Positions 2,055 to 64,000 of a DNA stretch of 64,000 nucleotides are shown piece by piece. A program made the position numbers and the translations under genes. The notes beneath the pieces are model-generated. The model saw nothing but the letters and a program-made list of their open reading frames with translations, did no database searches and was not told the origin of the DNA. This DNA is from Squalus acanthias. Taxonomy: Eukaryota. How positions within the stretch are numbered: position 1 is the stretch's first letter; each line of letters begins with the position of its first letter. The DNA lies in assembly GCA_030390025.1 (NCBI GenBank), contig CM059432.1, positions 54,748,001 through 54,812,000 on the forward strand, written 5' to 3'.

Positions 2055-4205
2055 TTCTTTATTCTTCATTCCTGCGATGTGGGCGTCCCTGCAAGGCCAG
2101 CATTTACTGCCCATCTTTAATTGCCCTGAACAAGTCGTGGTGAGCCTTCTTCATTGAACTATTGCCCTTCCTGTGGTGAAGGTGCTCCTTCAATACTGTT
2201 AGGCAGGGAGTTCCAGGATTTTGACCCAGCCAGAATGAAGGAACTGCAATATAGTTCCATGCACCTGTCTAGGTGGTGGAAGTCACCAGTTTGGGAGGTG
2301 CTGTGGAAGAACTATTGGCAAGTTGGTGCAGTGCATCTTCTTGTAGCATCTTCTAGATGGTACACACGGCAGCCACAGTACATAAGAACATAAGATGTAG
2401 GAGCAGGAGTAGGTCATTTGGCCCCTCGAGCCTGCTCCGCCATTCAATAAGATCATGGCTAATCTGATCTTGGCCTCAACTCTACTTCCCTGCCCGCTCC
2501 CCATAACCCTTGACTCCCTTACCATTCAAAAATCTGTCTATCTCCACCTTAAATATATTCAATGACCCAGCCTCCACAGCTCTCTGGGGAAGCGAATTCC
2601 AAAGATTCACAACCCTCTGAGAGAAGAAATTCATCCTCATTTCCGTTTTAAATGGGTGCCCCCTTATTCTGAAATTATGCCCCCTGGTTCTAGATTCCGC
2701 CACGAGGGGAAACATCCTCCCTGCATCTACCCTGTCAAGCCCCTTCAGAACCTTATATGTTTCAATAAGATCCCCTCTCATTCTTCTAAACTTCAATGAG
2801 TATAGGCCCAACCTGCTCAACCTTTCTTCATAAGACAACCCCTTCATCTCCGGAATCAACCTCGTGAACCTTCTCTGAACTGCCTCCAATGCAAGTATAT
2901 CCCTCCTTAAATAAGGAGACCAAAACTGTATGCAGTACTCCAGGTGTGGTCTCCCCAACACCCTGTACAGTTGTAACAGGACTTCCCTACATTTATACTC
3001 CATTCCCTTTGCAATAAATGCCAACATTCCATTTGCCTTCCTAATTACTTGCTGTACCTGCATGCTAACTTTTTGTGATTCATGTACAAGGACCCCCAGA
3101 TCCCTCTGTACCTCAGCATTTTGAAATCTCTCCCCATTTAAATAATAATTTCCTTTTTTATTTTTCTTACTAAGGTGGATAACCTCGCATTTTCCCACAT
3201 TATACTCCATCTGCCAGATTTTTGCCCACTCACTTAGCCTATCTATATCCCTTTGGAGATTCTTTGCATCTTCCACACAATTTGCTTTCCCACCTATCTT
3301 TGTATCATCAGTAAATTATGTTACATTACACTCAGTCCCTTCATCCAAGTCATTAATATAGATTGTAAATAGTTGAGGCCCCAGCACTGATCTCTGCGGC
3401 ACCCCACTAGTTACAGTTTGCCAATCTGAAAATGACCCATTTATCCCGACTCTCTGTTTTCTGTTAGTTAGCCAACACCAGTAGGCCGGTGATGGAGGGG
3501 GGTGAATGTTTAGATTCGTGAATGAGGTTCCAATCAAGCAGAGTGCTTTCTCCTGTATGGCGTTGAGCTTCTTGAGTGTTGTTGCAGCTGTACCCATTCA
3601 GGCAAGGGACTTGTGCCTTGAAAGTAGTGAAGAGGCTTTGGGGAGTCAGGAACGGAGCTACTCACCACAGAATACCCAGCCTCTAACCTGTTCTAGTAGC
3701 CAAAACATTTATGTGGCAGGTCCAGCAGAGTTTTTGATCAATGGTGAGCCCCAGGATGCTGATGGTGGAGGACTTGGCAATGGTAATGCCATCAAATGTA
3801 ATGGCGAGGTGGTTCTATGAGTATGTATATGTCAGGCTGTTGTTTGACTAGTCTGTCGGACAGCTCTCCCAACTTTGGCACCAGTCCCCCAATGTTAGTG
3901 AACAGGACTTTGCAGGGTTGAATGGGCTGGGTGTGCCTTTGTTGTGTCCTGATTCGATGCCTAGGTCGTAGCCGAGTGGTCTGGCTGATTTTGTTCTTTG
4001 TATTCTTTGATGTGGTTTCATATATTTGAGTGGCTTGCTAGGCCACTTCAGAGGGCAGTTAAGAGTCAACCATGATGGTGTGTGATTGGCGTCACATATA
4101 GGTCGGACTGGGTAAGGATGGCAGGATTCCTTCCCTGAAGGATATTAGTGAACCAGTTGGGTTTTTTACGACAATCCAACAGTTTCATGGTCACTTTTAC
4201 TGATA
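2055..4205 (-). mobile_element. Decayed, internally deleted copy of the tRNA-headed LINE family (family B), split by a CR1 insertion at 2381-3478
   Basis: Reverse complement matches the 3' tail (GGGCAGTAAATGCTGGCCTTGC), the RT C-terminal region and the 5' core (CTGGTTCACTAAT..CCTT.AGGGAAGGAA) of the copy at 30206-33291. Confidence 0.8.
2381..3478 (-). mobile_element. 5'-truncated CR1 LINE (RT C-terminal part, 3' UTR, short-repeat tail)
   Basis: ORF 2482..3276 has CR1 motifs (RPHLEYCIQFWSP, RRMRGDLIETYK, FFSQRVVNLWNSLP) with [10 protein letters not shown] upstream; flanked by direct repeat CAGTA (2376-2380 / 3479-3483). Confidence 0.92.
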
Positions 4206-4464
4206 CCAGGAGCGTGAAATTGGTCTTGAGTGGTAGCACAAAACGGGTGATAACGAATCGGCAGCCCATTTTATACCTGCAGTGTAGGAGTTTAAGAATC
4301 TGTGGGCACTGGGCCCTGCAGCAGCACCCTCAGATATGCTTCATGCAGCATTCTTATTAGTCCTTGCACCTTGCTGTTACATAGGTAAGCTGTTCTTTTA
4401 AGCTATAGAATTCAGTTAACCAATAAAGTAAGAGCACTGGAAGCCACGCTGATATTTTATTTTA

Positions 4465-9604: not shown

Positions 9605-11062
9605 TGGATTTGTTCTGGGCAGTTATTACCCGGTTTCAGAACTGGCAACTGGGAGTTACTGCTGAAGGGACAGTGCAAACAGAAATAAATCAGTGGAAAT
9701 ATTGATTCAAATACTATCTTCTAAGCAGATTTCTGATTTTATTTTACACCCCAATTTTTGATTCCACTTTTCTGGCCTTTGGAAGGGTAGTGAAATAAAT
9801 GTGGAATTAATGTTGCAAATCACCCTACATTTATAATCCAGATAGAATTTCAGCTCTATACCATAAAACTACCTGCAGAGATATGACTGCCAGTTTTCCA
9901 CCTACAAAAGCCTAATCAGGTGGACACATCAATATATGTAGCTTGTACTGTTAAATGAGTGCAACATGGAAAAAATGAGCACAAACAGATTTACATCATC
10001 CATCCAGATCAGATCAGAACTATGTATTCTTGTTAGAGTAATGGTTAGAAAAAGAAGTTCCACTTTTAAAAAAAAAAATTGCAATTGCTGGTGGTAATAA
10101 GGAATCTGTTGGCCTAAAATGACCTCTGATCAGACTATAGGGTAAATTTTGTGAGGGCCTGAAGGAGTCATGGGTTACAAAATCAGGTGCCCAAACTCAA
10201 GCACCCCATTCATGGACTGCCCAATTTCGCAACCTGATTAAAGTATTCAACGGATCATCCTCCGCCATTTCCGCCACCTCCAGCGTGATCCCACCACCAA
10301 ACATATCTTCCCCTCCCCTCCCCTTTCAACATTCCAAAGGGACTGTTCCCTCTGCAACACCCTGGTCCACTCCTCAATCACCCCAGCACCCCCTCCCATT
10401 CCCACGGCACTTTCCTGTGCAAGTGCAGGAGATGCAACACCTGCCATTTACCTCCTCCCTTCCCACTGTCCAGGGCCCCAAACACTCCTTCCAGGTGAAA
10501 CAGCGATTTACTTGTGCTTCTTTTAATTTAGTATACTGTATTCGCTGCTCACGATGTGGTCTCCTCTACATTGGGAAGACCAAATGCAGATTGCGTGACC
10601 ATTTTGCAGAACACCTCCGTTCAGTCCGCAAGGGTGGCCCTGAGCTTCTAGTCGCTTGTCACTTTAATTCTCTACTCCACTCCCACTCTGACCTTTCTGT
10701 CCTCGGCCTCCTACAATGTTCCAATGAAGCTCAATGTAAGCCCGAGGAACAGCACCTCATCTTTACAGCCTTCTGGACTCAAATTGAGTTCAACAATTTC
10801 AGATCATAACCTCTGCCCCCATTTTTTCGGACAGCAGCTGTTGATGATTCTGCTATTCCCATTTACGCCTCTTCTAGGCTCATCTTTTGTTTCTTTACTT
10901 GTCCCATTACCATCTCCTTTTGCCTTGCACCATCACCCCTCTTGCCATTCAATCTCTCCTGCCTTCCTCCCTATCACAGACCTTCCCCTTTATTCTTTCC
11001 TCCCCTACCCTCTTTCCCTGCCCCACACTTGCTTAAAACCTGTTATATCTCTAACTTTTTCC

Positions 11063-11643: not shown

Positions 11644-12861
11644 ATGGGTGTCGCTTATGCTGTTTCAACTTGAACCTCAGATTTGGACCAAGATGAGCCC
11701 CAGCACCAACCACACCAGCAGCAGCAGCAACAACACCAGCAGCCTTCTCCTCACTGACCTGATGCTCCACAGGAGAGAGGGGATCAGCACAGGGGTGCAC
11801 TGCGCCGGAGGCGATACCCCCAACACACGGTATACAGGCAGAGGATGAGCTTCCTGGACATGACTAAGCAGCAGTGCTTCAGGAGGCTCAGGCTATCGCG
11901 CCAGGTCGTGGCAGACATTTGTAGCTTGCTAGAAGAAGACCTGCTGCCCAGAGGACCTGGTGGACACACCTTACCAGTGGCTGTCAAAGTCACCACCACC
12001 CTCAACTTCTTCGCCTCAGGTTCCTTCCAGGGATCTGCAGCAGACATTTGCAGGATCTCGCAGTCGGCCGCCCACAAATGCATCACCCAGGTGACCAATG
12101 CCATGTTTCATAAGTCAGCCACTTATGTACACTTTGCCGCTGATGAAGCCAGTATGACAGAATGGGTGCTCGGCTTTGTGGCTCTGGCTGGCTTCCCACA
12201 GGTGCAGGGTGTCATCAACTGCACACATGTGCCCATCAAGGCACCCCCACATCACCCAAGAGTGTTTGTGGACTGAAAGGGCTTCCACTCCCTCAATGTG
12301 CAGCTCGTCTGCAATCACAAAAAGATCATCATGCATTTGTGTGCCAGATTCCCAGGGAGCTGTCATGACTCGTTCATCCTGCGCCAGTCCACCCTCGCTC
12401 TGCTCTTCGCACCTCCAAACAGACTTACCGACTGGCTGCTTAGAGACAAGGGCTATCCACTGAAGACATGGCTGATGACACCCTTGAGGAGGCCAAGCAA
12501 TGAGGCTGCGGAGCACTATAATCAAAGCCACATCATGACCAGATGTGTCATAGAGCAAGCAATCGGCATGCTGAAGATGTGTTTCAGATGCCTTGAAAGA
12601 TCTGGAGGAGTCCTTCAGTACACACCAGCCAGGGTCTCCAGAATCATTGTCGTATGCTGTGCGCTGCACAACATAGTGCAGCAGTGAAAAATGGAGCTGC
12701 AGGAAGAGCAAGGCGCAGAGGGCACAGCCTCTTCAGAGGAGGAGGAGGAGGAACAGGTGAAACATGAGGAGGAGGAACCTGAAGTGGAGATGGCACCAGC
12801 AGCGGCGCACATTGCTGCCTGGGAGGCCCGGGATGGCCTCATAATGGCCCGATTTAGTTAA
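11644..12861 (+). pseudogene. Harbinger DDE transposase pseudogene (HARBI1-like family); one frame, four internal TGA stops
   Basis: Motifs [62 protein letters not shown]; Gln-rich N-terminus and acidic C-terminus. Confidence 0.92.
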
Positions 12862-13156: not shown

Positions 13157-16100
13157 CTACGATTGTGTCTTTTTTCTTCTCCAAGTGTTTCTATGAGGTG
13201 CAACCCGCTGTGGCTTCAGCAGAGGTAGAGGCAGGCTGCTCACTTCCCTGCTGTGACTGCTTCGAAACGTTTGGCCGACGTCCTCTGGGTTTTGGAGCCT
13301 GTGAGGGCCCCACCAAAGACTGCTCCTCCTGCAACTGTGCAGGGCCAGACTCGGCCATCGGGATCCGAGGCAGCATGAGGGGCTCTGACTGAGGGGGAGG
13401 CAATGGGTGAGATGTGTGAGCGTTTTGAGCAGAGCTCCAACTTCCCTGTGCCCTCTCACCATCATCCCTCTCATGAGCCACCCACAGTTCCCTGCTAGCA
13501 AGGAGCTGGAGAGCACCTTGCTGCACATCAGCGGGGCGATGAACGCCCAAGACTATGTTGCTATCCCTTCAGAGATGAGTTCAATAAGAGTCTGCAAGCT
13601 GTTGTTCACAGCAAGCATGTTCTCATTTGAATGGCGCATTAGCTGCTCCGTGCAGGTGGTCATCCTTTCCATGGAACAGCACGTCGTCGCCATCGCCTGC
13701 GATATAGTGCTGCTCATGATGGAGTTGGACTCTTTCATTCTCTGTACAATCGTGCACATTGCGGCTGGAAAAGCTGCCAGAGCCTTGTGCATTTGTTGCT
13801 GCTCCTCCAAGACCCCTGTGGTTCAGCATCTACATCCAGCTGAGCAGAGCTTGGAGCGTCCTGCGCCCTCCGGCAAGGACTCTCCACTGCTGTCCCTGTC
13901 TCCACCATCTGCTCTTGCTCACTTTTGATGTGTGAGACACCAGGTGACACCACTACTCTATGTCTCACAGGACCCACCAACGTATCTGCGCTGGTGCTGG
14001 GTGCGCATGGGTCTGGTAACGGCGCACCCTCAGAGACTGGAACGTCCTCTGAGGAGTCGTCTTCCTCCTCCGGCTGGACAGTGGAGGGGGGAGGGGGGGT
14101 ACTTGATGGACGTATGGGAGAGTAAAGAGATTAATTAGAACTCTTATGATGAGAATGTGTAACGTTACCATTATGCACATGATGATATTTCACTGGCCGC
14201 TGACATCAGTCACCATGAGTGACTGTTGTATGCCATGTTGGATATTTCATTCTGTCACCAGGTTGCTGGGAGGTCCCCCTCTCTCCGTCTCCCACCGCCA
14301 GCAACTCTGCCACTCCACTTAATTCCAGCGCCTCCTCCTCTGCTGGCGTCAAATTAGTATATATTGGAGGGCCACCTCCGGTTCTTTCTCTTTCTCTCCT
14401 GTTCTGCGCTCTCTTCTCCTGCATTCCCTGGAGAGAAAGAAGAGAACTTTGAATGAGAGTGATAGAATGAGTTTAAGGGATGGACGGGCTACATCTGTAG
14501 AGGGTGACTATGAGAGAGTGACATGACATTACCAAATGGCCTTCTTCTGTGGTATTACTTTCTAGGATTGCATTAGGATCAGGGTGAGTGTCAGTGGTGG
14601 ATAGTCAGATGGAGATGTGAGTCGGTGCATAGACAGAGAGGGATGGGAGCACCTGCAAGGTAGGTTGGTGTGAGGAGTGACCTGCAGGAGTAGGCTTGGG
14701 AAGGCAGAGTGATGGGGTTGGGGTGACAGGTACATCAGGATATAGAAACATAGAAACATAGAAGATAGGAGCAGGAGTAGGCCATTCGGTCCCTCGAGCC
14801 TGCTCCGCCATTCGATGAGATCATGGCTGATCATCCAAACTCAGTACCCTGTACCTGCCTTCTCCCCATATCCCTTGATACCTTTAGCTTTAAGAAATAT
14901 ATCTAACTCATTCTTGAATATATTTAATGACTTCGCCTCAACTACCTTCTGTGGTAGAGAATTCCACAGGTTCACCACTCTCTGGGTGAAGAAATTCTTC
15001 CTCATTTCTGTCCTAAATGGCTTACCCGTTATCCTTAGATTATGACCCCTGGTTCTGGACTCTCCGACCATCGGGAACATTCTTCCTGCATCTAGTTTGT
15101 CCAGACCTGTCAGAATTTTATATGTTTCGATGAGATCCCCTCTCATTCTTCTATACTCCAGCGAGTATAAGCCCAATCGACCCAATCTCTCCTCATATGT
15201 CATTCCTGCCATCCCAGGTATCAGCCTTGTGAATCTTCGCTGAACTCCTTCCATGGCAAGAACATCCTTCCTCAGATAAGGCGACCAAAACTGCACACAG
15301 TACTCAAGGTGTGGTCTCACCAAGGCCCTGTACAACTGCAGCAGGACATCCCTGTTCCTATACTCAAACCCTTTCGCTATGAAGGCCAACATACCATTTG
15401 CCTTCTTCACCGCTTGCTGCACCTGCATGCTTACTTTCAGCGACTGGTGCACAAGGACACCCAGGTCTCGTTGCACTTCCCCTTCTCCCAATCTATTGCC
15501 ATTCAGATAATAGTCTGCCTTTCTGTTTTTGACACCAAAGTGGATAACCTAGCACTTATCCACGTTATATTGCATCTGCCACGCTTCTGCCCACTTACCC
15601 AACCTGTCCAAATCATCCTGGAGTTTCTCGGTATCCTCCTCGCAGCACACACTCCCACCCAGCTTTGTGTCATCTGCAAACTTGGAGATATTACATTTAG
15701 TTCCCTTATCTAGATCATTAATGTATATTGTGAATAGCTGGGGTCCAAGGACCGATCCCTGCGGTACCCCACTAGTCACTGCTTGCCACTCAGAAAAAGA
15801 CCCATTAATTCCTACTCTCTGCTTTCTGTCCGCCAACCAGTTCTCTATCCAAGTCAATACCTTGCCCCCAATCCCATGTGCCTTAACTTTACACGCTAAT
15901 CTCTTATGTGGGACCTTATCAAAAGCCTTTTGAAAGTCCAAATACACCACATCTACTGGTTCTCCCTCATCTATTTTCCCAGTTACATCCTCAAAAAATT
16001 CCAGTAGATTAGTCAATTTACCTTTTGTAAATCCATGTTGACTTTGTCCGATCCTGTCACTGTTTTTCAAGTGCTCAGCTATTACATCATTTATAATGGA

Positions 16101-18708
16101 CTCTAGCATTTTCCCCAATACCGTCTGTAATTCCCCGCTTTCTCTCTACCACCCTTTTTGAATAGTGGGGTAACATTAGCTACCCTCCAATCCATGGGTA
16201 CAGTTCCAGATTCCATCGAATGTTGGAAGATGATCAGCAATGCATCTACTATTTCTAGGGCCACTTCCTTAAGTACCCTAGGATGTAGATTATCAGGCCC
16301 TGGGGATTTATCGGCCTTCAATCCCGTCAATTTCCCTAACACCATTTCCCTGCAAATACTGATTTCTTTCAGTTCCTCCCTTTCATCAGACCGTATGTTC
16401 TCCAACATCTCTGGGAGGTTATTTGTGTCCTCCTTTGTGAAGACAGAACCAAAATATGCATTTAATTGGTCTGCCATTTCTTTGTTCCCCATTATAACTT
16501 CCCCCGCTTCTGACTGCAATGGACCTACACTTGATTTCACTAATCTTTTTCTCTTCACATATCTATAAAAGCTCTTACAGTCAGTTTTTATGTTCCCAGC
16601 AAGCTTACTTTCATATTCTATTTTCCCCTTCTTAATTAATCCCTTTGTCCTTCTTTGTTGAATCCTAAACTGCTCCCAATCCTCAGGGCTACTGCTTTTT
16701 CTGGCCAATTTATATGCCCTCTCCTTGGATCTTATGCTATCCCTAATTTCCCTTGTTAGCCACGGTTGAGTCACCCTCTTTGTTTTATTCTTATGCCACA
16801 CTGGGATGAACAAATTCTGTAGTTCATCCATGCAGTCTTTGAATGTTTGCCATTGCCTATCCACCGTCAACCCCTTGAGTGACATTCCCCAATCAATCCT
16901 ACCCAATTCGCGCCTCATACCATCGTAGTTTCCTTTATTTAAATTCAGGACCCTAGTCTCTGATTCAACTACTTCACTCTCCATCCTAATGAAGAATTCT
17001 ATCATATTATGATCACTCTGACCCAAGGGGCCTCATACAACAAGATTGCTAATTAATCCTTTCTCGTTACATAATACCCAGTCTAAGATGGCCTGATCTC
17101 TGGTTGGTTCCTCAACATATTGTTCCAGAAAACCATCTCGTAAACATTCTAGGAATTCCTCCTCCACAGTATTTTTACTAATTTGGTTAGCCCAATCTAT
17201 ATGTAAATTAAAGTCACCCATGATGACTGCTGTGCCCTTACTGCATGCTTCTCTAATTTCCCTTTTAATGCCGTCCCCAACCTTCGTATTACTGTTTGGA
17301 GGTCTATATACCACTCCCACTAAAGTTTTCTGCCCCTTGTTATTTCTCAGTTCTACCCATACAGATTCCGCATCATCAGAGCTAATATCCTTCCTTTCAA
17401 TTGTGTTAATCCCCTCTTTAACCAGCAATGCTACCCCACCTCCCTTTCTTTTTTGCCTATCTTTCCTAAATATTGAATAACCCTGGATGTTGAGTTCCCA
17501 GCCTTGGCCACCCTGGAGCCATGTTTCTGTAATCCCAATCAAATCGTATTCATTTACCTCTATTTGCACAGCTAATTCATCCACCTTGTTCCGAATGCTC
17601 CTTGCATTAAGACACAAAACCTTCAGGCTTGTTTTTTTAACGCTCTCAGACCTATATGAATTATTATTTACTGTGACCATGTTTGATTTAAACCGTTGAG
17701 TTCTTTGCCTTCTACTTTTGTTTTTCTCCTTCCTGTCTTTAGCTTTTATCCTTGTTTCCCTTTCCTCTGTCTCCCTGCTCAGGTTCCCAACCCCCTGCCA
17801 CTTTAGTTTAAACCCTCCCCAACAGCACTAGCAAACACTCCCCCTAGGACATCGGTCCCGGCCCTGCCCAGGTGCAGACCATCCCGTTTGTACTGGTCCC
17901 ACTAGCCCAGAACCGGTTCCAATGTCCAAGGAATTTGAATCCCTCCCCCTTGCACCATTCCTCTAGCCACGTATTCATTTGAAATATCCTCCTATTTCTA
18001 CTCTGACTAGCACGTGGCACTGGTAGCAATCCTGAGATTACTAACTTTGATGTCCTCTTTTTTAATTTACCTCCTAACTCCCTATATTCTGCTTTTAGGA
18101 CCTCATCCTGTTTTTTACCTATATCGTTGATGCCTATGTGCACCACGACAACTGGCTGTTCGCCCTCCCCCTCCAAAATGTTCTGTAGCCGCTCCGAGAC
18201 GTCCTTGACACTTGCACCAGGGAGGCAACACACCATCCTGGAGTCTCGTTTGCGGCCGCAGAAACGCCTATCTATTCCCCTTACAATTGAATCCCCTATC
18301 ACTATAGCTCTTCCACACTTTTTCCTCCCAGCCTGTGCAGCAGAGCCACCCATGGTGCCAGGAAGTTGGCTGCTGCCGCCTTCCCCTGATAAGTCATCCC
18401 CCCCAACAGCATCCAAAGCGGTATATCTGTTTGAGAGGGGGATATAGTTGAGTGGGACATTGCACTCACCTTTCCTGACCTTATTAGATCATTAAATCTC
18501 TTCTGACACTGTATCCAGGAGCGGCTCACTACACACCTGCTGCTGACTTCTTGTGCGATCTCCAGCCATGCCCTTTTGGTTTCACTGGCTGGTCTCTTCC
18601 TACTGTTACCAGGGAATAGGACCTCCCTCTGTGCTCTGACTCCCTGGACCAGGACTTCCAGGGAGGCATCGAGAACCTGGGCGCAGCCTACTGGCGCTGT
18701 GACTCCAT
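13157..18708 (-). pseudogene. Harbinger Myb/SANT-like DNA-binding gene, 3 exons (18708-18470, 14418-14259, about 14112-13157), disrupted
   Basis: Exon 1 reads AAPRFS/DASLEVLV..REVLFP..AWLEIAQEV..RSWIQCQKRFNDL followed by a GTGAGT donor; exon 2 EKRAQNRRERERTGGGPP bounded by CAG/GT; stop and frameshift in exon 1. Confidence 0.82.
14746..18439 (-). mobile_element. Long CR1 LINE: partial ORF1 (SGNH esterase-like) and ORF2 (APE endonuclease and RT), frameshifted
   Basis: IVIGDSIVRG..VVVHIGINDI (17844..18416); CLNARSIRNK, ITETWL, MGDFN (17033..17680); [28 protein letters not shown]; (ATAGAAAC)n tail; GGATATAG on both sides. Confidence 0.95.
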
Positions 18709-20887: not shown

Positions 20888-21080
20888 ATGTCAGCCTTGG
20901 ATCTTGGTAGCACTCTCACCTCTGAGTCAGACGGTCATGGGTTCAAGCCCCACTCCAGAAAATTGAGCACATAATCCAGGCTGACACATCAGTGCAGTAT
21001 TGAGGGAGTGCTACGCTATCGGAGATGCCATCTTTTAGATGCGACGTTAAACTGAGGCCCTGGGTGCCCTCTCAAGTTGC
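20888..21080 (+). mobile_element. SacSINE1/Deu-type SINE, 5' half
   Basis: Colinear with 24984-25180. Confidence 0.8.
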
Positions 21081-22431
21081 TACAGGGTACAGTAGTATAG
21101 TGATTAAGTTACTGGAGTAGTAACCTATCTCTCCCAATTTTTATTTCCATTGATATCACCCGTTTTACACTATCGCACAAAGTCAAGATCTACTCCATGG
21201 AAACGTATGGCACATGGGAATAGGATAAACTCCAAAATGGACTGGTTGTGCTAAATGGCCTGTTTCCCTGTTGTAGTTCTTGTGTAATTACATGTAATAT
21301 AGACCCACTGTTTTATGCTCTGATGGATTAGTGGACATGATGAAGAAATGCCCTCCAGCAATGATATACATGGAGAACCACAGGAGCAGTCAAGTGACAG
21401 TAATGTCAGCAACAGTTCTGGCCACCATGTAGCCCTACACAATTAGCTGCAAGCAACACCTCAGATGGCATGATTTCAGCAAAAAGCACTCCTGACACTG
21501 ATGCAGACACATCACAGTTAGTCACAGAAGCAGGTAGTCAACTTTATGAATCGCAGGCAGCTCTCCAATTGGCTCAACTGTCTTCCAACACTGCTACTTC
21601 CTCAGCTAGAGAAGCACATAGCAGCCAGGGGACATGTGTGAGCAATACACAGAGCTACACAAAGCACAAGGATCAACACAAAATAATGCATTGAAGATTT
21701 ACAGCATATGCACTCAAAACACTACATTCGCTCATTCACTAAATAACATGTTGTCACTTTTAATATATCTTGTGGTTTTCCATTCATGTATTGTGCAGTA
21801 AAAGATTAATTTTTTTAAAGTAAACCAAATTGAACATGCAGTTCCGTGCCAAACCTAAACAGATCAACTAACTGGTAGTTCCCTGCTTATGAATAGAAAG
21901 TTAAAGTAGTCAATTGCAGGTCTCAGTAGAAGCAATAAAGAATTAGCCCTTCCCCACATATCTCCCGGGTTGTAGTGGCTCATCTGCTGCAAGTGGCTTC
22001 TAAGAACAATTATATTTGTGGTCTTTTATGCCTAGTTACTGTAACTCATTCAAGTCCATGGTGAGACCTCTGTCCATGACAATATTGTGCATTATACTGT
22101 TACAATTTTCCTCCTCTTCATTGGGGCATATTGGATACATACCTGAGCCCATGAATCTGAAGCATAGTCTAAGCATCCCAAATGTTTGCTCACTGTGCAT
22201 CATTACATTTAATCTCTACTTGGTGCGCAGAGTTGTGCTAAGGTGTTGCCACCTATCTGTGCACCTTGTTGGCCATATCTCTAAGGGGCTAGCCCGCCAA
22301 GCTTCCTTTTCCTTCAAAAAGCTGCATCAGGTTTAATTACCTCAGAATGAAAGCATTGTGTATACTCCCCTGGAAGTATGCACTGATATGCATTATTTTA
22401 TGTTGGTGGTTACATACATTGATGATATAAT

Positions 22432-24983: not shown

Positions 24984-25454
24984 GTGTCAGCTGTGGCTCA
25001 GTTGGTAGCACACTCGCCTCTGAGTCAGAATGGTTGTGGGTTCAAGTTCCCACTCCAGGGACTTGAACACATAAATCTAGGCTGACGCTCCAGTACAGTG
25101 CTGAGGGAGTGCTGCACTGTTGGAGGTGCCGTCTTTCAGATGAGACGTTAAACCGAGGCCCCGTCTGCTCTCTCAGGTGGACGTAAATGATCCCATGGCA
25201 CTATTTCGAAGAAGAGTAGGGGAGTTATCCCCGGTCTCCTGGCCAATATTTATCCCTCAACCAACATAACAAAAACAGATTATCTGGTCATTATCACATT
25301 GCTGTTTGTGGGACCTTGCTGTGCGCAAATTGGCTGCCGCGTTTCCCACATTACAACAGTGACTACACTTCAAAAGTACTTCATTGGCTGTAAAGCACTT
25401 TGAGACGTCCGGTGGTTGTGAAAGGCGCTATATAAATGCAAGTCTTTCTTTTCC
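24984..25454 (+). mobile_element. Full-length SacSINE1/Deu-type tRNA-derived SINE
   Basis: A box TGGCTCAGTTGG, B box GGTTCAAGT, Deu-type core (GATCCCATGGCACTATTTCGAAGAAGAG..CCTGGCCAATATT), L2-like tail AAAGGCGCTATATAAATGCAAGT. Confidence 0.9.
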
Positions 25455-26104
25455 TTTTTTTCTCCTCCAATTTTTTGAATAGAAATTAAAACAATGTTAT
25501 TTCTTCTTAAATGACTACTAATACAAAATACAATTCACTGCTTTTCTTTCTTCCCAATGAAGTAGTTATTAGTGTTTGTTAAACAGGAGATGTAGAATTT
25601 TGATGTGCTTTGTTAGTGCCCATTGGGAGTGTATGTTTTCCTCCAGACTTTGTACAACTGATATTTCTTGTGTGTTAAGGTCGCAAGAAAAAAAGATAAA
25701 ATTGTGATGTCTCTAAAAAGAAAATAAACACGCAGCTGGACTTAGCTTTCTGGGCTCTGTCGACAAATCTTCATAAAGCAACTGGTGAACACAAATTATA
25801 TATCTGTCCCTGAATTAATTTTGAATGTAGTCAGTGATAATTTGACAAGAAAAGCAATCAAATTGCGTTAATAATGATCCATATTTAGCCACTGCTATTA
25901 TTGCTGGGGATGATGCTAATCCTCCCTTTATGACTTCTTATCTTTTTTGTGCAACCAGTACTAACTCCAGTGATGGAAATAAAGACAATGATGAGGTTGC
26001 ATTGTATGATTGAATAGGTGCTGCACTGGAATGGGGCCTACCGAAAATGCTCGAGCCTCCATTTCAAACTGGAAGTCACTGATTTTGGCAAAAGCATTTT
26101 ACTA

Positions 26105-30205: not shown

Positions 30206-33200
30206 GGGTACGGTAGCATAGTGGTTATGTTACTGGACTAGTAATCCAGAGGACTGGACTAATGATCTGGAGACGGGAGATCAAATCCCACCACGACATC
30301 TGGGGAATTTAAATTCAATTAAATAAATCTGGAATAAATAGCTAGTATCAGTAATGGTAACTATGAAACTACCGGATTGTCATAAAAACCCATCTGGTTC
30401 ACTAATGTCCTTTAGGGAAGGAAATCTGCCATCCTTACCTGGTCTGGCCTATATGTCTCTCCAGACCCACAGCGATGTGATTCATTCTTAACTGCCCTTG
30501 AAGTGGTCTAGCAAGCCACCCAGTTGTACCAAACTGCTACAGAAAACAAAACAGACCACTCGGCACCGGCTTCGGACACGACAAAGGCACACCCAGCCCA
30601 GTCGACCCTGCAAAGTCCTCCTCTGGGGACTTGTGCTGAAATTGGGAGAGCTGTCCCACAGACTAGCCAAGCAACAGCCTGACAGAACCATGCAGGACAG
30701 ACCCACCAGAGGAGGCGGCACTGTGGTATACAGTCGGGAGGCAGAGGCCCTGGGCGTTGTCAACATTGACTCCGGACCCCATGATGTCTCATGGCTGCAG
30801 GTCAAGCATGGGCAAGGAAATCTCCTGCTAATTACCACCTACCACCCTCCCTTAACTGATGAATCAGCCCTCCTCCATCTTGGAAGAAGCACTGAGGGTA
30901 GCAAGGGCACAGAATGTACTCTGGGTGGGGGACTTCAATCATCGGTAGCACCACTACTGACCGAGCTGGCCACGTCCTGAAGGACATAGCTGTGAGACTG
31001 GGCCTGTGGCAGGTGGTGAGAGAACCAACACGAGGGAAAAACCTACTTGACCTCGTCCTCATCAATCTGCCTGTCACAGATGCATCTGTCCATGACAGTA
31101 TTGGTAGCAGTGACCACCGCAGTCATTGTGGAGATGAAGTCCCGTCTTCACACTGAGGACACCTTCCATCGTATTGTGTGGCACTACCACCGTGCTAAAC
31201 GGGATAGATTCAGAACAGACCTAACCTAGCATCTCAAAACTGGATATCCATGAGGTGTTGTGGGCCATCAGCAGCAGCAGAATTGTATTCCACCAGAATC
31301 TGTAACCTCATGGCCCAGCATATCCCTCACTCTAACGTTACCATCAAGCCAAGCGACCAACCCTGGCTCAATGAGGATTGTAGAAGAGCATGCCAGGAGC
31401 AGCACCAGGCATACCTAAAAATGAGGTGCCAACCTGGGGAAGCTGCAACACAGGATTACATGCATGCTAAACAGCGAAAGCAGCATGCTATAGACAGAGC
31501 TAAGCGATTTCACAACCAATGGATCAGATCAAAGCTTTGCAGTCCTGCCACATCCAGTCATGAATGGTGGTAGTCGATTAAACAACTAACGGGAGGAGAA
31601 GTCTCCATGAACACGAGTGCAAAAGACAAGGCTGAAGCATTTGCAACCATCTTCAGCCAGAAGTCCCGAGTGGATGATCCATCTCGGCCTCCTCCTGAGG
31701 TCCCCACCATCACAGAAGCCAGTCTTCTGCCAATTCGATTCACTCCACGTGATATATCAAGAAACTGGATACAGCAAAGGCTGTGGGCCCCGACAACAAC
31801 CCGGCTGTCGTGCTGAAGACTTGTGCTCCAGAACTAGCGGCACCTCTAGCAAAGCTGTTCCAATACAATAACAACACTGGCATCTACCCGACAATGTGGA
31901 AAACTGCCCAGGTATGTCCTCTCCACAAAAAGCAGGACAAATCCAACCCAGCCAATTACCGCCCCATCAGTCTACTCTCAATCATCAGCAAAGTGATGGA
32001 AGGTGTCATCGACAGTGCTATCAAGTGACACTTACTCACCAATAACCTGCTCACTGATGCTCAGTTTGGGTTCCGCCAGGGCCACTCAGCTCCTGGCGGA
32101 CCTCATTACAGCCTTGGTCCAAAAATGGACAAAAGAGCTGAACTCCAGAGGTGAGGTGAGAGTGACTGCCCTTGACATCAAGGCAGCATTTGACAGAGTG
32201 TGGCATCAAGGAGTCCTAGTAAAATTGAAGTCAATGGGAATCAGGGGGAAAACTCTCCACTGGCTGGAGTCATACCTAGCACAAAGGAAGATAGTTGTGG
32301 TTGTTGGAGGTCAATCATCACAGCCCCAGGACATCGCTGCAGGAGTCCCTCAGAGCAGTGTCCTAGGCCCAACCATCTTCAGCTGCTTCATCAATGACCT
32401 TCCCTCCATCATAGGTTCAGACATGGGGATGTTCGCTGATAATTGCACAGTGTTCACAACTCCTCAGGTAATGAAGCAGTCCATGCCCGCATGCAACAAG
32501 ACCTGGACGATATTCAAGCATGGGCTGATAAGTGGCAAGTAACATTTGCCCCACACAAGTGCCAGGCAATGACTATCTCCAACAAGTGAGAGTCTAACCA
32601 CAGCCTCTTGACATTCAATGGCATTACCATCACCAAATCCCCCATCATCAACATCCTGGGGGTCACCATTGACCAGAAACTTAACTGGACCAGCCACATA
32701 AATAATGTGGCTACAAGAGCAGGTCAGAGGCTGAGTATTCTGCAGCGAGTGTCTCACCTCCTGAATCCCCAGAGCCTTTCCACCATCTACAAGGCACAAG
32801 TCAGGAATGTGATGAATACTCTCCACTTGCCTGGATGAGTGCAGCTTCAACAACACTCAAGCAGCGCGACACCATCCAGGACAAAGCAGCCCACTTGATT
32901 GGCACCCCATCCACCACCTTAAACATTCACTCCCTCCACCACTGGCGTACCGTGGCTGCAGTGTGTACCATCTACAAGGCTTCTTCGGCAGCACCTCCCA
33001 AACCCGCGACCTCTACCACCTAGAAGGACAAGGGCAGCAGGTGCATGGGAACACCACCACCTCCAAGTCGCACACCATCCTGACTTAGAAATATATCACC
33101 GATCCTTCATCGTCGCTGGGTCAAAATTCTGAAACTCCCTCCCTAACAGCACTGTGGGAGTACCTTCACCACAAGGACTGCAGCAGTTCAAGAAGGCGGC

Positions 33201-33291
33201 TCACCACCACCTTCTCAAGGGCAATTAGGGATGGGCAATAAATGCTGGCCTTGGCCACGATGCCCACATCCCAGGAACGAATAAAATAAAA
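30206..33291 (+). mobile_element. Near full-length single-ORF APE-RT LINE (family B) with tRNA-derived 5' head; frameshifted
   Basis: Head with A/B boxes at 30214-30289; APE motifs (KLGELSHRL, GGGTVVY, VREPTRGKNLLDLVL, SSDH); RT motifs (NYRPISLLS, LDIKAAFDRVWH, GVPQSSVLGP, FADN); A-rich tail. Confidence 0.9.
30214..30289 (+). promoter_or_regulatory. Type-2 Pol III internal promoter-like region (tRNA-derived)
   Basis: A box TAGCATAGTGG; anticodon arm CTGGA-CTAGTAA-TCCAG; second arm CTGGA-CTAATGA-TCTGG; T arm GGGAGATCAAATCCC (GAGTTCAAATCCC in the copy near 57545). Confidence 0.7.
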
Positions 33292-35824: not shown

Positions 35825-37640
35825 GGGCCATAATTTGCTGTCAAAATAACAGGGAGGCTAATGGCACTCTCTGTTATTTATGCGCAAATGCTACGGCAAC
35901 TTTAGGCGAGGACAAATGTGCGGTTAAACACGGAAATCCAAAAGTTGCTGTCCGAGACATAAAAAACCTGCAAGGGGACATAGACAGGCTAAGTAAGTGG
36001 GCAGAGATTTGGCAGATGGAATACAACACTGGAAAGTGTGAGGTGATGCACTTTGGCAGGAAAAATCCTAGAGCAATTTATTATCTTAATGGCAAGAAAC
36101 TGGAGAGTACTGAAGTGCAAAGGGATCTGGGGGTCCTGGTGCACGAAACTCAAAAGGTTAGTATGCAGGTGCAGCAAGTGATTAAGAAGGCAAATGGAAT
36201 GTTGGCTTTCATTGCTAGGGGGATAGAATATAAAAATAGGGAGGTATTGCTTCAGTTGTACAAGGTATTGGTGAGACCGCACCTGGAATACTGCATACAG
36301 TTTTGGTGTCCTTACTTAAGGAAAGACATCCTTGCTCTCGAGGCAGTGCAAAAAAGGTTCACTCGGTTAATCCCGGGGATGAGGGGGTGGTCATATGAGG
36401 AGAGGTTGGGTAGATTGGGACTCTACTCATTGGAGTTCAGAAGAATGAGAGGCGATCTTATTGAAACATGTAAGATTGTGAAGGGGTTGGATCGGGTGGA
36501 TGCGGGGAGGATGTTCCCGATGACGGGTGAGACGAGAACTAGGGGACATAGTCTTAGAATAAGGGGCTGCTCTTTCAAAACTGAGATGAGGAGGAACTAC
36601 TTCACTCAGAGGGTGGTAGGTCCATGGAATATGCTGCCACAAAAAGCTGTAGAAGCTACAACATTAATTAAATTTAAAACAGAAATAGACAGTTTCCTAG
36701 AAGTAAAGGGCATTAAGGGTTACGGGGAGCGGGCAGGAATTTGGACATGAGTCTAGGTTCGGATCGGTCATGGCCCTGTGGGTAGTGGAGCGGGCCCAGG
36801 GACTGTGTAGCCTGATTCTGCTCCTATTTCGTGTGTGCAATTCTGTTAGATGCAGGAGATGGTTCTGTGATAGATAGTAGATTGGCGGTTAGGATCAGAT
36901 CAGCCATGATCTTATTGAATGGCGGAGCAGGCTCGAGGGGCCGATTGGCCTACTCCTGCTCCTATTTCTTATGTTCTTATGTTCTTATGAGATGCACTGC
37001 TCCACCATTAGCTTTGCGAAAACAGCATCTCACTGTCTGCCTCACCATTGAAATGCATTGAATGGTGTGAAGTTGCTGTATTTGTGCAGTAGATATGAAC
37101 TAAACTCACGCCAGAAAGTCCAGTCTTGTCAATTTCAGTCTAAGTGCACTTTTAACGATGTGATAAGTGTTAATTATTGCCAGTCAACCTCTCTGGCACT
37201 GAAAATGTTCTACTACAAGTGTGGACTCTCATTCCTTCAGGTTTTAATTGTTGGTGGAGATTTTTTAAATAAAACTTTTAAAAGTGATTTTTTTATTCTT
37301 CTGTCTTTTTTATTCTCTCCCTTGATCCAGTCTTTCTTTTCCTTTCTTTATTTCTCTTTCTGTACCTGATTTGACATTGAATTCACCCATTCTAATTTAT
37401 ACTTCCTTCTCAGTCCTTGCTCTGTTAATTTCAAAATCTTTCAATCAGAATGGTTAAGGAGATACACAGTTGCTTGTCCTGTTCACTCAGGTCCCAGATG
37501 CCCTGTTTCCCTCACTGTGATGTTATCAGCTCGCACTTTCAGCAACTTGCCATGCAAAAAATGTAAGAACTAAATGTGCAAGGCTAAGTGTAACTAACAA
37601 CAGACACCATTAGATTCACTCCTACAGCAAATAATGGCCC
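35825..37640. mobile_element. Harbinger-type MITE (about 780 bp net) hosting a CR1
   Basis: TIRs GGGCCATAATTTGCTGT / ACAGCAAATAATGGCCC (16/17); exact TSD AAT; inverted homologue at 39839-40618. Confidence 0.88.
35958..36988 (+). mobile_element. 5'-truncated CR1 with a doubled 3' UTR
   Basis: Open ORF 36016..36750 with CR1 C-terminal motifs; (TTCTTATG)n tail; flanking GAGA repeat. Confidence 0.92.
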
Positions 37641-52339: not shown

Positions 52340-54693
52340 ATGGGGGCTGTACTGGCAGTCGACCTCGCCCTCCAGGATCTACGGCGGAGGGAGCGGAGGC
52401 AGCGAGAAAGACTGGAACATGTGGCCAGAGGGAGGAGGAGGACCATCAGGGCTCTCAACAGAAGGCCTTACCCTCCGGGGGTATTCCGAGAGCATGTCTC
52501 CTACCTCCAATTAAGCAAGGAGCAGTGTATTAGAAGGCTCTGCTTCACCAAGGAGGTGGCCACAGAACTCTGCCATGTCCTGCAACCAGACCTCCAGTCT
52601 CAGATCAGTGCAACCACGGCTCTCACAGTGGCATCCAAGGTCACCGTTGTGTAAGCATCGGAGCAGGCCCCAAGTATTTGTATGATTGTTACTGCTGTTC
52701 GACCAGCAGCCTGTTTGGCCCAGTGGTAGGGGCGTGGTGCAGTTGGACCTAGAAGCACAGACACACCTGTGAGTTTCAATTTAACTATGGAAAAGACATT
52801 TGCTTTGGACAATGAGCGTCTCGATAGGTGATTTAACTGTGAATAGGTGATTTAACTTTGGACAATGAGACTTCGTTTTTTAATGGGTTTCGATGGATCT
52901 TCAATTGGATAAGACCATGATGCCAGTTTCGCTGGAACAATGAACTTCCTGGCCTCAATGGTAAACACTTTAACCTTGGGCAAAACACATCAGCAGTAAG
53001 ACTAAATCAAATCAAATATGTACCACAGGGAGGGGGAGACAAGATAAGGAATTGTCTTCCATCCCCCAGCCCTGTACATGTCCTGTGGTTTGGATTACTG
53101 GGTGTGTATTGTAATACAAGAGTTGGGGGAAGGCCCAGACTCGAAAAGGCGGGAACCAGACAAAGAAGGGTGATTTAAAAGACATCACTGCAATACACAG
53201 ACCTGGAATTAACTTTTAGGGTATACAGAGAAGGCAGCTTTGGCCATTTTTTTTCTCTCTCTCTCTCGCTTGCTCTAAACCACCATGAGCAACAAGAGCC
53301 TTGCCTTGCTCTTTGACTGTAGGAACGAACCTTGAAACTGGGTCTTGGATACTGCATCGGCGATACGGAACCAGGAGACACGCTCTACACGAGGAAGCAA
53401 CGAGCAAGAAAACGGACAATCGGGGTGAGCATTGTCCAAGCCCACGCATCCTTAAGACCACCGGTACTGTGTGAGGGGGTGTTGTGTGTCCCAACCAAGC
53501 CAGAGGGGCTTAGTGGGGAGGTTCTGTGTGTATTATATAGTGTATGTTCCGGGGTTTGTGGGACAAGTCCATGTTATACTCTGTATAGCAACACAGTGTG
53601 ATTTTAGGCGTCTTAACACGAGACAGGGGCCTGTTTGACGGGCCAAGTTGTGTTGTTGTACTGTTTGTTTTACGCCACCAGGCAATTTACGTACTGGAGG
53701 CGGGTGTGTGTGTTAACCTTATTAAACGGTTGAGTCCGAAAAGCTTGTCTGTGTTTCCAATCCTGTTCACCGTAATTCCTGTCGTATAGAACTAAGTAGG
53801 GGGGGGGGTGATTCGAACCACCAAGGCAAACCACCTACAGTTGCCCTCAATTTCTTCGTCAGCGGATCCTTCCAGCCTGCAAATGGAGACATAGCTAACA
53901 TCTCGCAGTTTACCATCCATCGCTGCATCCGGGAGGTCACAGAGGCTCTCTACAGTAGGAGAAGGGATTACATTTCCTTAGCCATCACCAGAGAGAAGCA
54001 GGACGAGTATGCATGTGGCTTTGCCAGGATAACGGGATTCCCCATGGTGCAGGGCACCATTGACTGCACCCACATGGCTTTGCGGGCACCGCATAACAAT
54101 CCTGAGATCTTCCATAACCGCAAAGGCTACCACTCACTTAATGTGCAGTTGGTGTGCGACCACAGACAGCGAATCCTCAATGTCAATCCTGGCAGCAGCC
54201 ACGATGCCTTCATCCTGTGCCAGCACTCTTCCAGGCACCACGTCAAGCTCGCGGCTGGCTGCTCGGAGACAAAGGCTATCCGCTCTCCACCTGGCTCATG
54301 ACTCCCCTCCGCAACCCCAACACTCCTGCCCAGCACTCATATAATGAGAGCCATGCTGCCACCAGGAACATCATCGAGCAGACCATCAGCCTGCTGAAGC
54401 AACTGTTCCGCTGCCTTGACCGCTCAGGAGGAACCCTCCAGTACTCAGCTGAGCGGGTGTCCCATTTTGTCATGGTGTGCTGCATGCTCCACAACTTGGC
54501 CATCATGAGGGCCCAGCCCTTGCCACCAGGGATTGCGGGGCCACCTCAGGAGGAGGACAAGGGACAGGAGGACGAGGAGGAAGAGGAAGATGAGGGCAGC
54601 CACTCAATAGACCTTCCAAAAAGGCGGTCCGTGATCGCCTCATCAGAAATTTATCAAAAATCAGTGAACACATATTTACAGCGAAAATATTAA
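52340..54693 (+). pseudogene. Harbinger DDE transposase pseudogene interrupted by a solo LTR and a frameshift near 54222
   Basis: Rejoined frame ..[59 protein letters not shown]. Confidence 0.9.
52650..53839 (+). mobile_element. Solo LTR (1190 bp)
   Basis: TGTAAG...CCTACA termini; exact 4-bp TSD GTTG; ATTAAA at 53721; removal restores the transposase frame. Confidence 0.9.
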
Positions 54694-56600: not shown

Positions 56601-57627
56601 GAGTACAGCTGCTTCAGTCCTCCAGCTCCTTCTCCTTGTCCTGCTTCTGTTTGCTGAGGCAGCTGCACAGCCAGCAATGCGGAAAATTAGGTTCTGCAGC
56701 TTCAATGAACCGCCCCTTTAAGTACTGAAAAAAGCCTGTGGTAATCATGACTTGCGATTAGACTGCACCTGATATTGGTCCACCAATGGTAACGCCAATG
56801 AGCTCGGCTTTAAGACTTGAATTAGGACTCCAATCATTTTTTTGAGCAGTGAGCATGAATTTTGCATGCAATCTAAAGCATTAATGCCTGACGCTAATTC
56901 TCCAACTTTTCTACTGACACCGGCCATTCGTGGGCTATAATGAATTTCTAGCCCTTTGTCTTCACAAAAACTTTGTGGTGGTCACTCCTACCAATTCTAT
57001 CATGGACAGATGTATCTGCAACAGGTAGTTTGATGAAGACTATATACCACTGTTCCCCCGACATACCCAGGGATGGTGGTGGAGGAGTATCTAATGTTAA
57101 CTGATAGATACGACTCTGAGTACAACAACTCATGCTGCTACTTGACCAGTCTGTGAGACAATTCTCCCAACTTGGGCACCAGTGATGAGGAGGACTTTGC
57201 AGGCTCGGCTGGGCTGACATTGCTTCAGTCTTGTCCTAATATGGTGCCTGGGTTGCTGCCGATGGGTGTATCCAAATTTTCCCTTATTTTTGAACTTAAT
57301 AATGCTTGTTTACAATTAAGTGACCTGCTAGGCCACTTCAGAAGGCATTAAAAACCAACCATGCAGTGTTGGACTGGAGTCACATGCAGGCCTGATCAGG
57401 TAGAAATGTCAGGTTCCCTTCCCTGAAGGACATTAGTGAACCTGTTGGGTTTTTACACCATTTAAGTTTTCATGAATGTTTTTCTCTATTTTTCTGGTGC
57501 TATTACCAGACTTATTGAATTAAATTTCACAACTTGCCATGGTGGGATTTGAACTCACAACATACCAAGGTAAGCGTGCTACTATCTGAGCCAAGCCAAT
57601 ACACAGCATTTTGGGGGAGAGTTCGGG

Positions 57628-63580: not shown

Positions 63581-63625
63581 AGGTATGGGATCATAGTGGT
63601 TGTGTTACTGAACTAGTAATCCAGA

Positions 63626-64000
63626 GGACCCCTCCCTCTGGCCTCTTACCCTCTCTAGATCTTTTCATTGCAAACTGCCGGCGTGACATCGGCCGTCTTA
63701 TTTCTCTGCCCCCCTCACTCACTCCAACCTATCTTCCTCTGAACTTGCAGCACTCCATTCTCTCAGATCCAACCCCAACATTGTCATTAAACCTGCTGAC
63801 AAGGGTAGTGCTGTTGCTGTTTGGCGAACCAACCTCTACTTAACGGAGGCTGAACGCCAACTCTCCGACACCTCCTCCTACCTCCGCCTGGAACATGACC
63901 TCACTACCGAACATCAAGCCACCGTTTCCAAGACCGTCACTGACCTCATCTCCTCTGGAGATCTTCCCTCCACGGCTGCCAACCTCATAGTTCCCCAACC
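63626..64000 (+). mobile_element. Penelope-like RT upstream region, runs off the window
   Basis: LRSNPNIVIKPADKGSAVAVW..Y..EAERQLSD..SY motif. Confidence 0.82.

Follow-up and report, generated by a model that had tools for sequence, protein, structure and literature searches.

Transfer RNA-derived heads on elasmobranch Zenon retrotransposons and the case for their transcription by RNA polymerase III

Can a protein-coding retrotransposon be transcribed by RNA polymerase III (Pol III)? In the textbook division, long interspersed nuclear elements (LINEs) are transcripts of Pol II and short interspersed nuclear elements (SINEs) those of Pol III, with Pol III held to make short non-coding RNA only. 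The question is raised by an element on the plus strand, at 30206-33291, of a 64,000-nucleotide (nt) stretch of the 3.7-Gb Squalus acanthias genome (assembly GCA_030390025.1, contig CM059432.1, positions 54,748,001 to 54,812,000; this whole stretch is called the window below), which a sequence-only reading had proposed to be an autonomous LINE transcribed by Pol III. Here, we find that the element belongs to a LINE family, Zenon, whose elasmobranch members open with a head derived from transfer RNA (tRNA), and that its open reading frame (ORF) is depleted of T clusters. Judging from these sequences, elasmobranch Zenon elements would probably (at a rough probability of 0.6) be transcribed by Pol III from internal boxes, undergo non-AUG translation as uncapped RNA, and be recognized through a 3' stem-loop. 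The element, its parts and two relatives lie in the window as follows.

30206..33291, plus strand: decayed full-length copy of an elasmobranch Zenon LINE, subfamily A of the two defined here
30206..30297, plus strand: tRNA-derived head, with a match to Rfam RF00005
30214..30224, plus strand: A box, from element position 9, a tRNA-like placement; kept in all seven published elasmobranch consensuses (by eye)
30233..30270, plus strand: anticodon-like arm and its tandem duplicate; a single arm in some copies
30278..30288, plus strand: B box, mutated in this copy
30298..30545, plus strand: conserved non-coding body, common to a 488-nt SINE; not a Deu domain
30503..30519, plus strand: small hairpin with a 7-nt anticodon-like loop, of speculative function
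30546..30605, plus strand: linker found in the LINE only; main frame open, no in-frame AUG; part deleted in this copy
30606..33228, plus strand: ORF for an apurinic/apyrimidinic endonuclease (APE) and reverse transcriptase (RT), with Pfam RVT_1 and Exo_endo_phos_2; broken in this copy
33148..33291, plus strand: 3' tail common to the SINE, overlapping the last part of the ORF; a predicted stem-loop is followed by an A-rich end
3830..4209, minus strand: diverged copy (75%) with the body-to-ORF junction, cut before the head
57130..57600, minus strand: older sister-subfamily copy (~72%) with degraded head, body and endonuclease start

First-look searches returned 10,289 candidates with the 5' 495 nt and 7,295 with the endonuclease region, figures that are not copy numbers. 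The window copy and 40 others (20 of them chosen by the 5' part and 20 by the endonuclease, two being near-duplicates) went into a column majority; it is 3.3 kb long, holds one stop-to-stop frame of 982 codons, and is 84-97% identical to the individual copies. Compared with this 41-copy majority, the window copy is 94.2% identical over 3,065 aligned bases and carries 22 indels, and 11 of the 17 ORF indels break the frame. The copy is therefore frameshifted, as had been said, and the single APE-RT ORF described for it is present in the majority but not in the window copy itself. The endonuclease motif starts at 30606, 400 nt past the element start, in agreement with the claim that there is no room for an ORF1; in the majority, 434 nt lie upstream of the endonuclease, and the single ORF counted from that point has 938 codons. 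The 20 copies with both ends present have A-rich ends; 15 of them show no target-site duplication, and the other five have 6-9-nt matches, mostly far from the ends. The predicted 3' stem-loop has a fold z of -2.4 against base shuffles. Losses of 9-25 nt between short direct repeats are frequent among copies of the family, a recurrent 12-nt one in the linker being an example, and an isolated 48-nt piece of a Zenon head lies at 63582-63629 (+).

The tRNA-derived head sits at the element start, as first proposed: an A box (A-box-like letters TAGCATAGTGG at 30214-30224), an anticodon-like arm at 30233-30249 with a second copy at 30254-30270, and a B box were all found, together with an Rfam tRNA match. 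The element thus has the arrangement of a type-2 Pol III transcription unit, with A and B boxes inside a tRNA-derived 5' head; both box calls rest on the general box consensus. Against the Rfam tRNA model, the window copy scores 21.1 bits (E 0.053), under the 29-bit cutoff, and the single-arm copy L121 scores 32.1 bits (E 2.6e-5), above it. An Rfam scan over the whole window returned no tRNA or internal ribosome entry site (IRES) family, the head scoring in narrow scans only, and ARAGORN found no tRNA in the window. On 30 of the 80 metagenome loci carrying related elements, ARAGORN gave one unrelated minus-strand tRNA, a blank that weighs little because the program also misses the Zenon family's own head. 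The 5' end of the element is precise across copies and falls at about position 1 of a mature tRNA, with the A box at +9.

By sequence, the LINE is a member of the already published Zenon family of the CR1 group. Zenon elements from five elasmobranchs, coelacanth and hagfish all lack ORF1 and have poly-A tails in the available part of their description (PMC13343379, GBE 2026), where the elasmobranch ones (SquAca, CarCar, RhiTyp, ScyCan, HypSab) are 2.9-3.3 kb long, and the majority shares both traits, a single APE-RT ORF without ORF1 and an A-rich end. We compared the published consensuses (PMC13343379 supplement) with the majority by eye over the first 400 letters of each row. SquAca_Zenon-1, -2 and -3 agree with the majority at nearly every letter, in the head as well, and the two subfamilies defined below find their counterparts in the variants of -1 and -2. 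The CarCar, RhiTyp, ScyCan and HypSab consensuses start with a related tRNA head, three of them with a perfect B box. In all seven elasmobranch consensuses, then, the head opens the element, with the boxes kept and the spacer between them differing, and runs of four T (T4) are absent from the first 400 letters; the two hagfish consensuses and the coelacanth one have no head and contain T4 to T6 in the same span. The words "tRNA", "polymerase" and "promoter" do not occur in the main text of PMC13343379, nor in the preprint, and the main text leaves the head, the loss of T clusters, the absent start codon and the derived SINE undiscussed. Because the consensuses match and the main text is silent on the head, we regard the LINE as known and its head as in print only as unannotated letters. 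Even if Pol II transcribes these elements, the published Zenon consensuses bear an unremarked tRNA head. Since all Zenon elements lack ORF1, its absence, though real, is a family-wide trait and not the independent pointer to Pol III that it had been taken for.

Protein searches gave single-ORF relatives in butterflies, a beetle and a protist (32-47% identity), together with fragments of higher similarity in one shark and one ray; there were no relatives in viral contigs. In a FastTree phylogeny of 65 sequences, which included no named Zenon protein, the element groups with invertebrate-type proteins, one of them from a butterfly, and apart from the CR1 of the same genome (37% identity). A canonical vertebrate CR1 was rejected, as the element has no ORF1 and is 30-37% identical to the window's esterase-bearing CR1.

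Several lines of evidence indicate that head and ORF have long been copied as one selected unit. Of 29 copies chosen by their endonuclease, 13 extend into the head (in 11 the alignment chain goes back to positions 1-7, and in two the head start lies beyond a one-arm deletion), and the other 16 end at scattered positions 22-603. No alternative 5' end or common upstream sequence was found in these 29 copies, whose flanks share chance repeat pieces only, so the suggested check that long copies might lack the head or extend into an upstream ORF1 found none that starts elsewhere and 16 merely cut short. Variants of the head and of the ORF co-segregate (29 copies, Mantel rho 0.52; the highest of 500 permutations was 0.19). 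The ORF variants split the copies into subfamilies of 17 and 19 (4 of 40 unassigned), and each subfamily majority is distinct in its head variants, keeps the ORF free of stops and contains no T4. Synonymous to non-synonymous counts are 40:24 for shared ORF variants and 509:1,509 for private ones. An older sister subfamily, ~72% identical, has the head in four of seven aligned LINE copies, the other three being cut, and diverges more at third codon positions (0.29) than at the other two (0.19 and 0.17). The head is thus the 5' end of the family, inherited with the ORF, and the ORF evolved under purifying selection while joined to it. The head-to-ORF junction had been called a family trait and not chance nesting, and it is indeed old and common to sharks and a ray. 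The two minus-strand copies cited in its favor bear this out in part: the copy at 3830-4209 has the junction but its head is cut off, and the one at 57130-57600 retains head, body and endonuclease start but is a member of the older subfamily with a degraded head.

Pol III terminates at runs of T, including interrupted ones. TTTT is described as a Pol III terminator in the part of PMC8223928 drawn on here. The window copy has no T4 in 3,086 nt, where 4.3-4.4 are expected from base shuffles (P 0.006-0.008), alongside 16 A4+, 9 C4+ and 7 G4+ runs, which agrees with the initial count by eye of no T4 and a dozen or more A4+. In the majority, base shuffles leave exact TT runs near expectation (78 versus 83) and runs of at least three A, C or G not significantly low; T3 (7 versus 16), T4+ (0 versus 4) and four T in five bases (1 versus 12) are scarce. 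Relative to synonymous shuffles, with protein and codon usage fixed, the majority has five T3 where 11.4 are expected (P 0.003) and one four-in-five cluster where 5.8 are (P 0.007); the corresponding counts for A, C and G are normal. The proposed consensus test with codon-preserving shuffles therefore stands for T3 and interrupted clusters, but the absence of T4, although complete, does not reach significance alone (0 versus 1.9 expected, P 0.11). Codon choice shows the same pattern: third-position C/T use moves from 188/134 to 35/5 to 2/0 as the resulting T-run grows (Fisher P 1.4e-4), with T chosen in 42% of cases where it stands alone versus 12% where a run of at least three would form. The Phe content of the Zenon protein, 1.9%, is lower in just 4 of 121 relatives. 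As a separate observation, a related subclade (P0013, P0017, P0030, P0045 and P0124) on 3.4-3.6-kb contigs (four of five known) has a Phe content of just 1.5-1.8%, as low as that of the Zenon family.

As controls for T-runs, we used one LINE family from the same genome and those 54 of the 80 metagenome loci with an ORF of at least 1.8 kb. The CR1 ORF2 of the same genome has six T4 and a TT observed/expected ratio of 1.09, and its third-position C/T use shows no such fall (P 0.11); of the sense-strand T4 runs earlier reported in CR1 copies, the one at 36301 is present and the second lies at about 41605, not 41625. None of the 54 relatives is free of T4. Their TT observed/expected ratios are 0.86-1.25 versus 0.69 in the Zenon LINE, and their four-in-five ratios are at least 0.70 (median 0.96) versus 0.17. 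Among genomic copies, T4 runs occur at scattered private sites and rise with divergence from 0.05 to ~1 per kb; 17 of 41 copies are free of them, as are the majority and both subfamily majorities. Simple avoidance of UU was rejected because the exact TT count is normal. The depletion of T clusters is real, specific to T, limited to runs of at least three and without parallel in the controls, and as a pattern it fits selection against Pol III terminators, interrupted ones included, better than T poverty or UU avoidance.

The start of translation is unusual as well. Upstream of the endonuclease, the majority has eight AUGs, none usable in frame. In 26 of 81 LINE copies, an in-frame AUG-GCC-UAG mini-frame precedes the endonuclease motif by 132 nt; the AUG-GCC-UAG element is in frame in 50 of 81, and it stands at an equal distance in two older copies. 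Readthrough from this AUG was rejected because two stops follow, TAG at codon 3 (61/81 LINE copies) and TAA at codon 9 (62/81). An out-of-frame linker AUG is present in 20 of 68 copies only. The linker is open past the second stop and reads similarly in the older subfamily, and we therefore infer non-AUG initiation there. The hairpin at 30503-30519 overlaps the mini-frame in the family, and its loop could pair with a motif just downstream, a pairing comparable to those in dicistrovirus IRESs. An IRES-type pseudoknot is unsupported, there being no covariation and the pairing motif being mostly missing in the older subfamily. AUG-less ORFs are common among non-L1 LINEs, and the missing AUG fits Pol III transcription without proving it.

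A short family has the same head as well. Among 29 head-picked copies, 12 run into the ORF, 14 have the head joined to the 3' tail and three are fragments. One junction, spanned by 40 of 40 scored matches (the 39 non-query ones at 92-95%), defines a SINE family with a 488-nt majority, in which positions 1-349 are 96.8% identical to LINE positions 1-345 and positions 353-488 are 97.8% identical to LINE positions 3169-3304. At diagnostic head sites, the SINE agrees with subfamily A at 7 of 11 and with B at four, and an older SINE copy, L204, has the body of the older subfamily. At the first letters, the LINE has three G and most SINE copies have four (an extra-position G in 2 of 32 versus 19 of 30 copies), from which a cap signature can be read neither way. 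The simplest reading of these sequences is that the SINE arose as the headed LINE repeatedly lost its interior; ongoing exchange between the two elements may be an alternative or an addition. We also observed many short copies with private head-to-tail junctions (L063, L065, L067, L072-L074, L076, L086, L087 and L089 among them), which cluster at majority positions 298-343 and 3197-3236 and represent either further SINE deletions or independent LINE deletions.

Taken together, these observations suggest a scheme in which an ORF1-less Zenon element of the CR1 group would have acquired a tRNA-derived head long ago. TFIIIC would bind at the A and B boxes, and Pol III, meeting no T4 and for that reason reading the full 3.3 kb, would continue through the A tail and stop at the first flanking T-run, as SINE transcripts do. 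Translation of the uncapped RNA would be weak and would begin at a non-AUG codon shortly after the conserved body, and the protein would bind the 3' stem-loop and insert the element by target-primed reverse transcription. Because the headed LINE already carries the promoter, an internal deletion would directly yield a Pol III SINE such as the 488-nt family. Pol III-made reporter RNA can be translated, and removal of TTTT raises its output, according to the part of PMC8223928 available. We think it somewhat better than an even bet that the fuller version holds, with end-to-end Pol III transcription predating the split of sharks and rays, an ORF purged of terminators, a non-AUG start, SINEs made by deletion and possibly a tRNA-mimic hairpin.

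A number of points weigh against Pol III transcription. In the published view, as given in the sections of PMC10886601 available, LINEs are Pol II transcripts and processivity is said to limit Pol III elements to less than ~1.3 kb. The B box of the S. acanthias lineage, which reads GTTCAAATCC in the majority, is one letter off the consensus; three other sharks have GGTTCGAATCC. Besides its P of 0.11 under synonymous shuffles, the absence of T4 has a P of 0.15 under a codon-order null and 0.23 under a first-order Markov (dinucleotide) null. CR1 itself shows a mild four-in-five depletion (18 versus 24.3 in synonymous shuffles, ratio 0.74, P 0.018), and the 54 relatives are thin controls, imperfect because they are distant (23-37% identical) and mostly richer in T. 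The covariation term for an IRES-like structure is -0.21. Both the head and the ORF are covered in contig-level runs (four, their type a guess, from as many organisms), but start, strand and polymerase cannot be read from them, and they amount to no transcript evidence. Finally, none of the best 150 RT matches is a copy with a whole ORF, the longest open frame being 615 amino acids; the family may therefore be dead in S. acanthias. Intact Zenon ORFs are reported for two other species, 3 of 612 and 1 of 1419, in the available part of PMC13343379.

The alternative that survives best, though we consider it unlikely, is that the head is an integral 5' untranslated region serving Pol II, whether as an internal promoter, an enhancer, a chromatin opener or a recruiter of both polymerases, and that the LINE RNA is a capped mRNA. 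Only the short SINE would then be a Pol III product, and T loss would reflect composition or the avoidance of U-rich splice or 3'-processing signals. The general assignment of LINEs to Pol II and the failure of T4 absence under stricter nulls speak for it, as do the usability of some Pol III promoters by Pol II, raised for U6 in the part of PMC8223928 available, and the tRNA-like sequence that RTE-1_DAn and the elements related to it carry without any claim about polymerase (PMC5786205). However, the ordinary two-ORF CR1 of the same genome keeps T4 and T5, all 54 relatives contain T4, and the depletion in Zenon spares TT and strikes terminator-sized and interrupted runs. Moreover, three AATAAA hexamers lie within the first 360 nt of the majority, and a capped RNA would face the eight upstream AUGs with no usable in-frame one before the endonuclease.

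Far less probable is that the head is an RNA-processing signal, with ribonuclease P (RNase P) cutting a tRNA-like fold to free the element from host read-through transcripts. The precise 5' end near mature-tRNA position 1 suits such a role, and ribozymes process the 5' ends of LINEs such as R2 and RTE (PMC5786205). Yet neither the Rfam alignments (that of L121 spans model positions 7-64 only) nor the fold recovers the acceptor stem, it is the boxes that are conserved and the arms that vary, and the loss of T clusters is left unexplained. We give almost no credence to headed copies being recurrent by-products, through template switching to SINE RNA or nested insertion, of a master with another 5' end: the abundant SINE does have the same head (the short form at 14 of 29 head-picked loci), but the single fixed junction, the co-segregation of head and ORF, the lack of an alternative 5' end in 29 copies, and the same architecture in the older subfamily and in five species all argue otherwise.

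If Pol III does transcribe these elements, they would provide a natural 3.3-kb coding Pol III transcript, kept in sharks and a ray, and a direct test system for Pol III processivity, for translation of uncapped RNA and for adaptation of coding sequence to terminators. No title or abstract opening in the literature searched, which leaves most subscription journals outside it, describes an autonomous LINE transcribed by Pol III, and four sequence motifs of the element occur in no main text of the papers searched.

Among known systems, lepidopteran Zenon and Persaeus, which derives from it by internal deletion (PMC6740152), are likewise a single-ORF CR1-group LINE and a short element made of its two ends. 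Persaeus, in the part of that source available, shows no homology to tRNA and lacks a Pol III promoter, whereas the shark LINE is itself headed, and its deletion product is therefore a tRNA-headed SINE. RTE-1_DAn and relatives are also LINEs with tRNA-like sequence, matching SINE2 heads, but they belong to the RTE clade, and the comparison rests on a one-sentence description that gives neither position, function nor T content (PMC5786205). Bipartite-LINE SINEs (Bov-tA, CoeSINE4 and others; PMC5786205) resemble the Zenon SINE in having a tRNA head in front of 5' and 3' LINE parts; in those SINEs, the deletion comes first and the head later, and the sources are RTE and Vingi only, whereas the shark head sits on an autonomous CR1-group LINE. 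A headed LINE that loses its middle offers a simple route to the birth of a SINE, and it also gives the body of a SINE an identifiable origin, which PMC5786205 leaves as an open question. The SacSINE1/Deu-SINEs of cartilaginous fishes (PMC5499810, in the part available) are also tRNA-headed shark SINEs of similar length, but their head, body and L2-type tail are all unlike those of the Zenon-derived SINE. A SacSINE1/Deu identity for the latter was rejected, as the Deu-SINEs of the window give no significant alignment with it. The Deu motif occurs in the window at 21038 and 25139 only, and one Deu-type SINE is delimited there.

24986-25460, plus strand: Deu-type SINE with a SacSINE1 head, the head as in the PMC5786205 supplement

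A second Deu-type SINE with a SacSINE1 head lies at about 20889-21077 (+), and a 39-nt fragment of a Zenon head lies at 21085. The window also holds the following elements.

53726-54693 and 11758-12276, plus strand: DNA-transposon remnants, presumably Harbinger-like, with a DDE_Tnp_4 match at 54142-54690
14742-18490, minus strand: young CR1, nearly full-length, whose ORF1 is an esterase (GDSL) one

A 222-codon frame at 10141-10809 (+), with no Pfam match, looks Penelope-like. The CR1 at 14742-18490 has 39 other scored copies that are 99% identical over 1.6 kb, and an unbroken 1,002-codon ORF2 is present at several loci.

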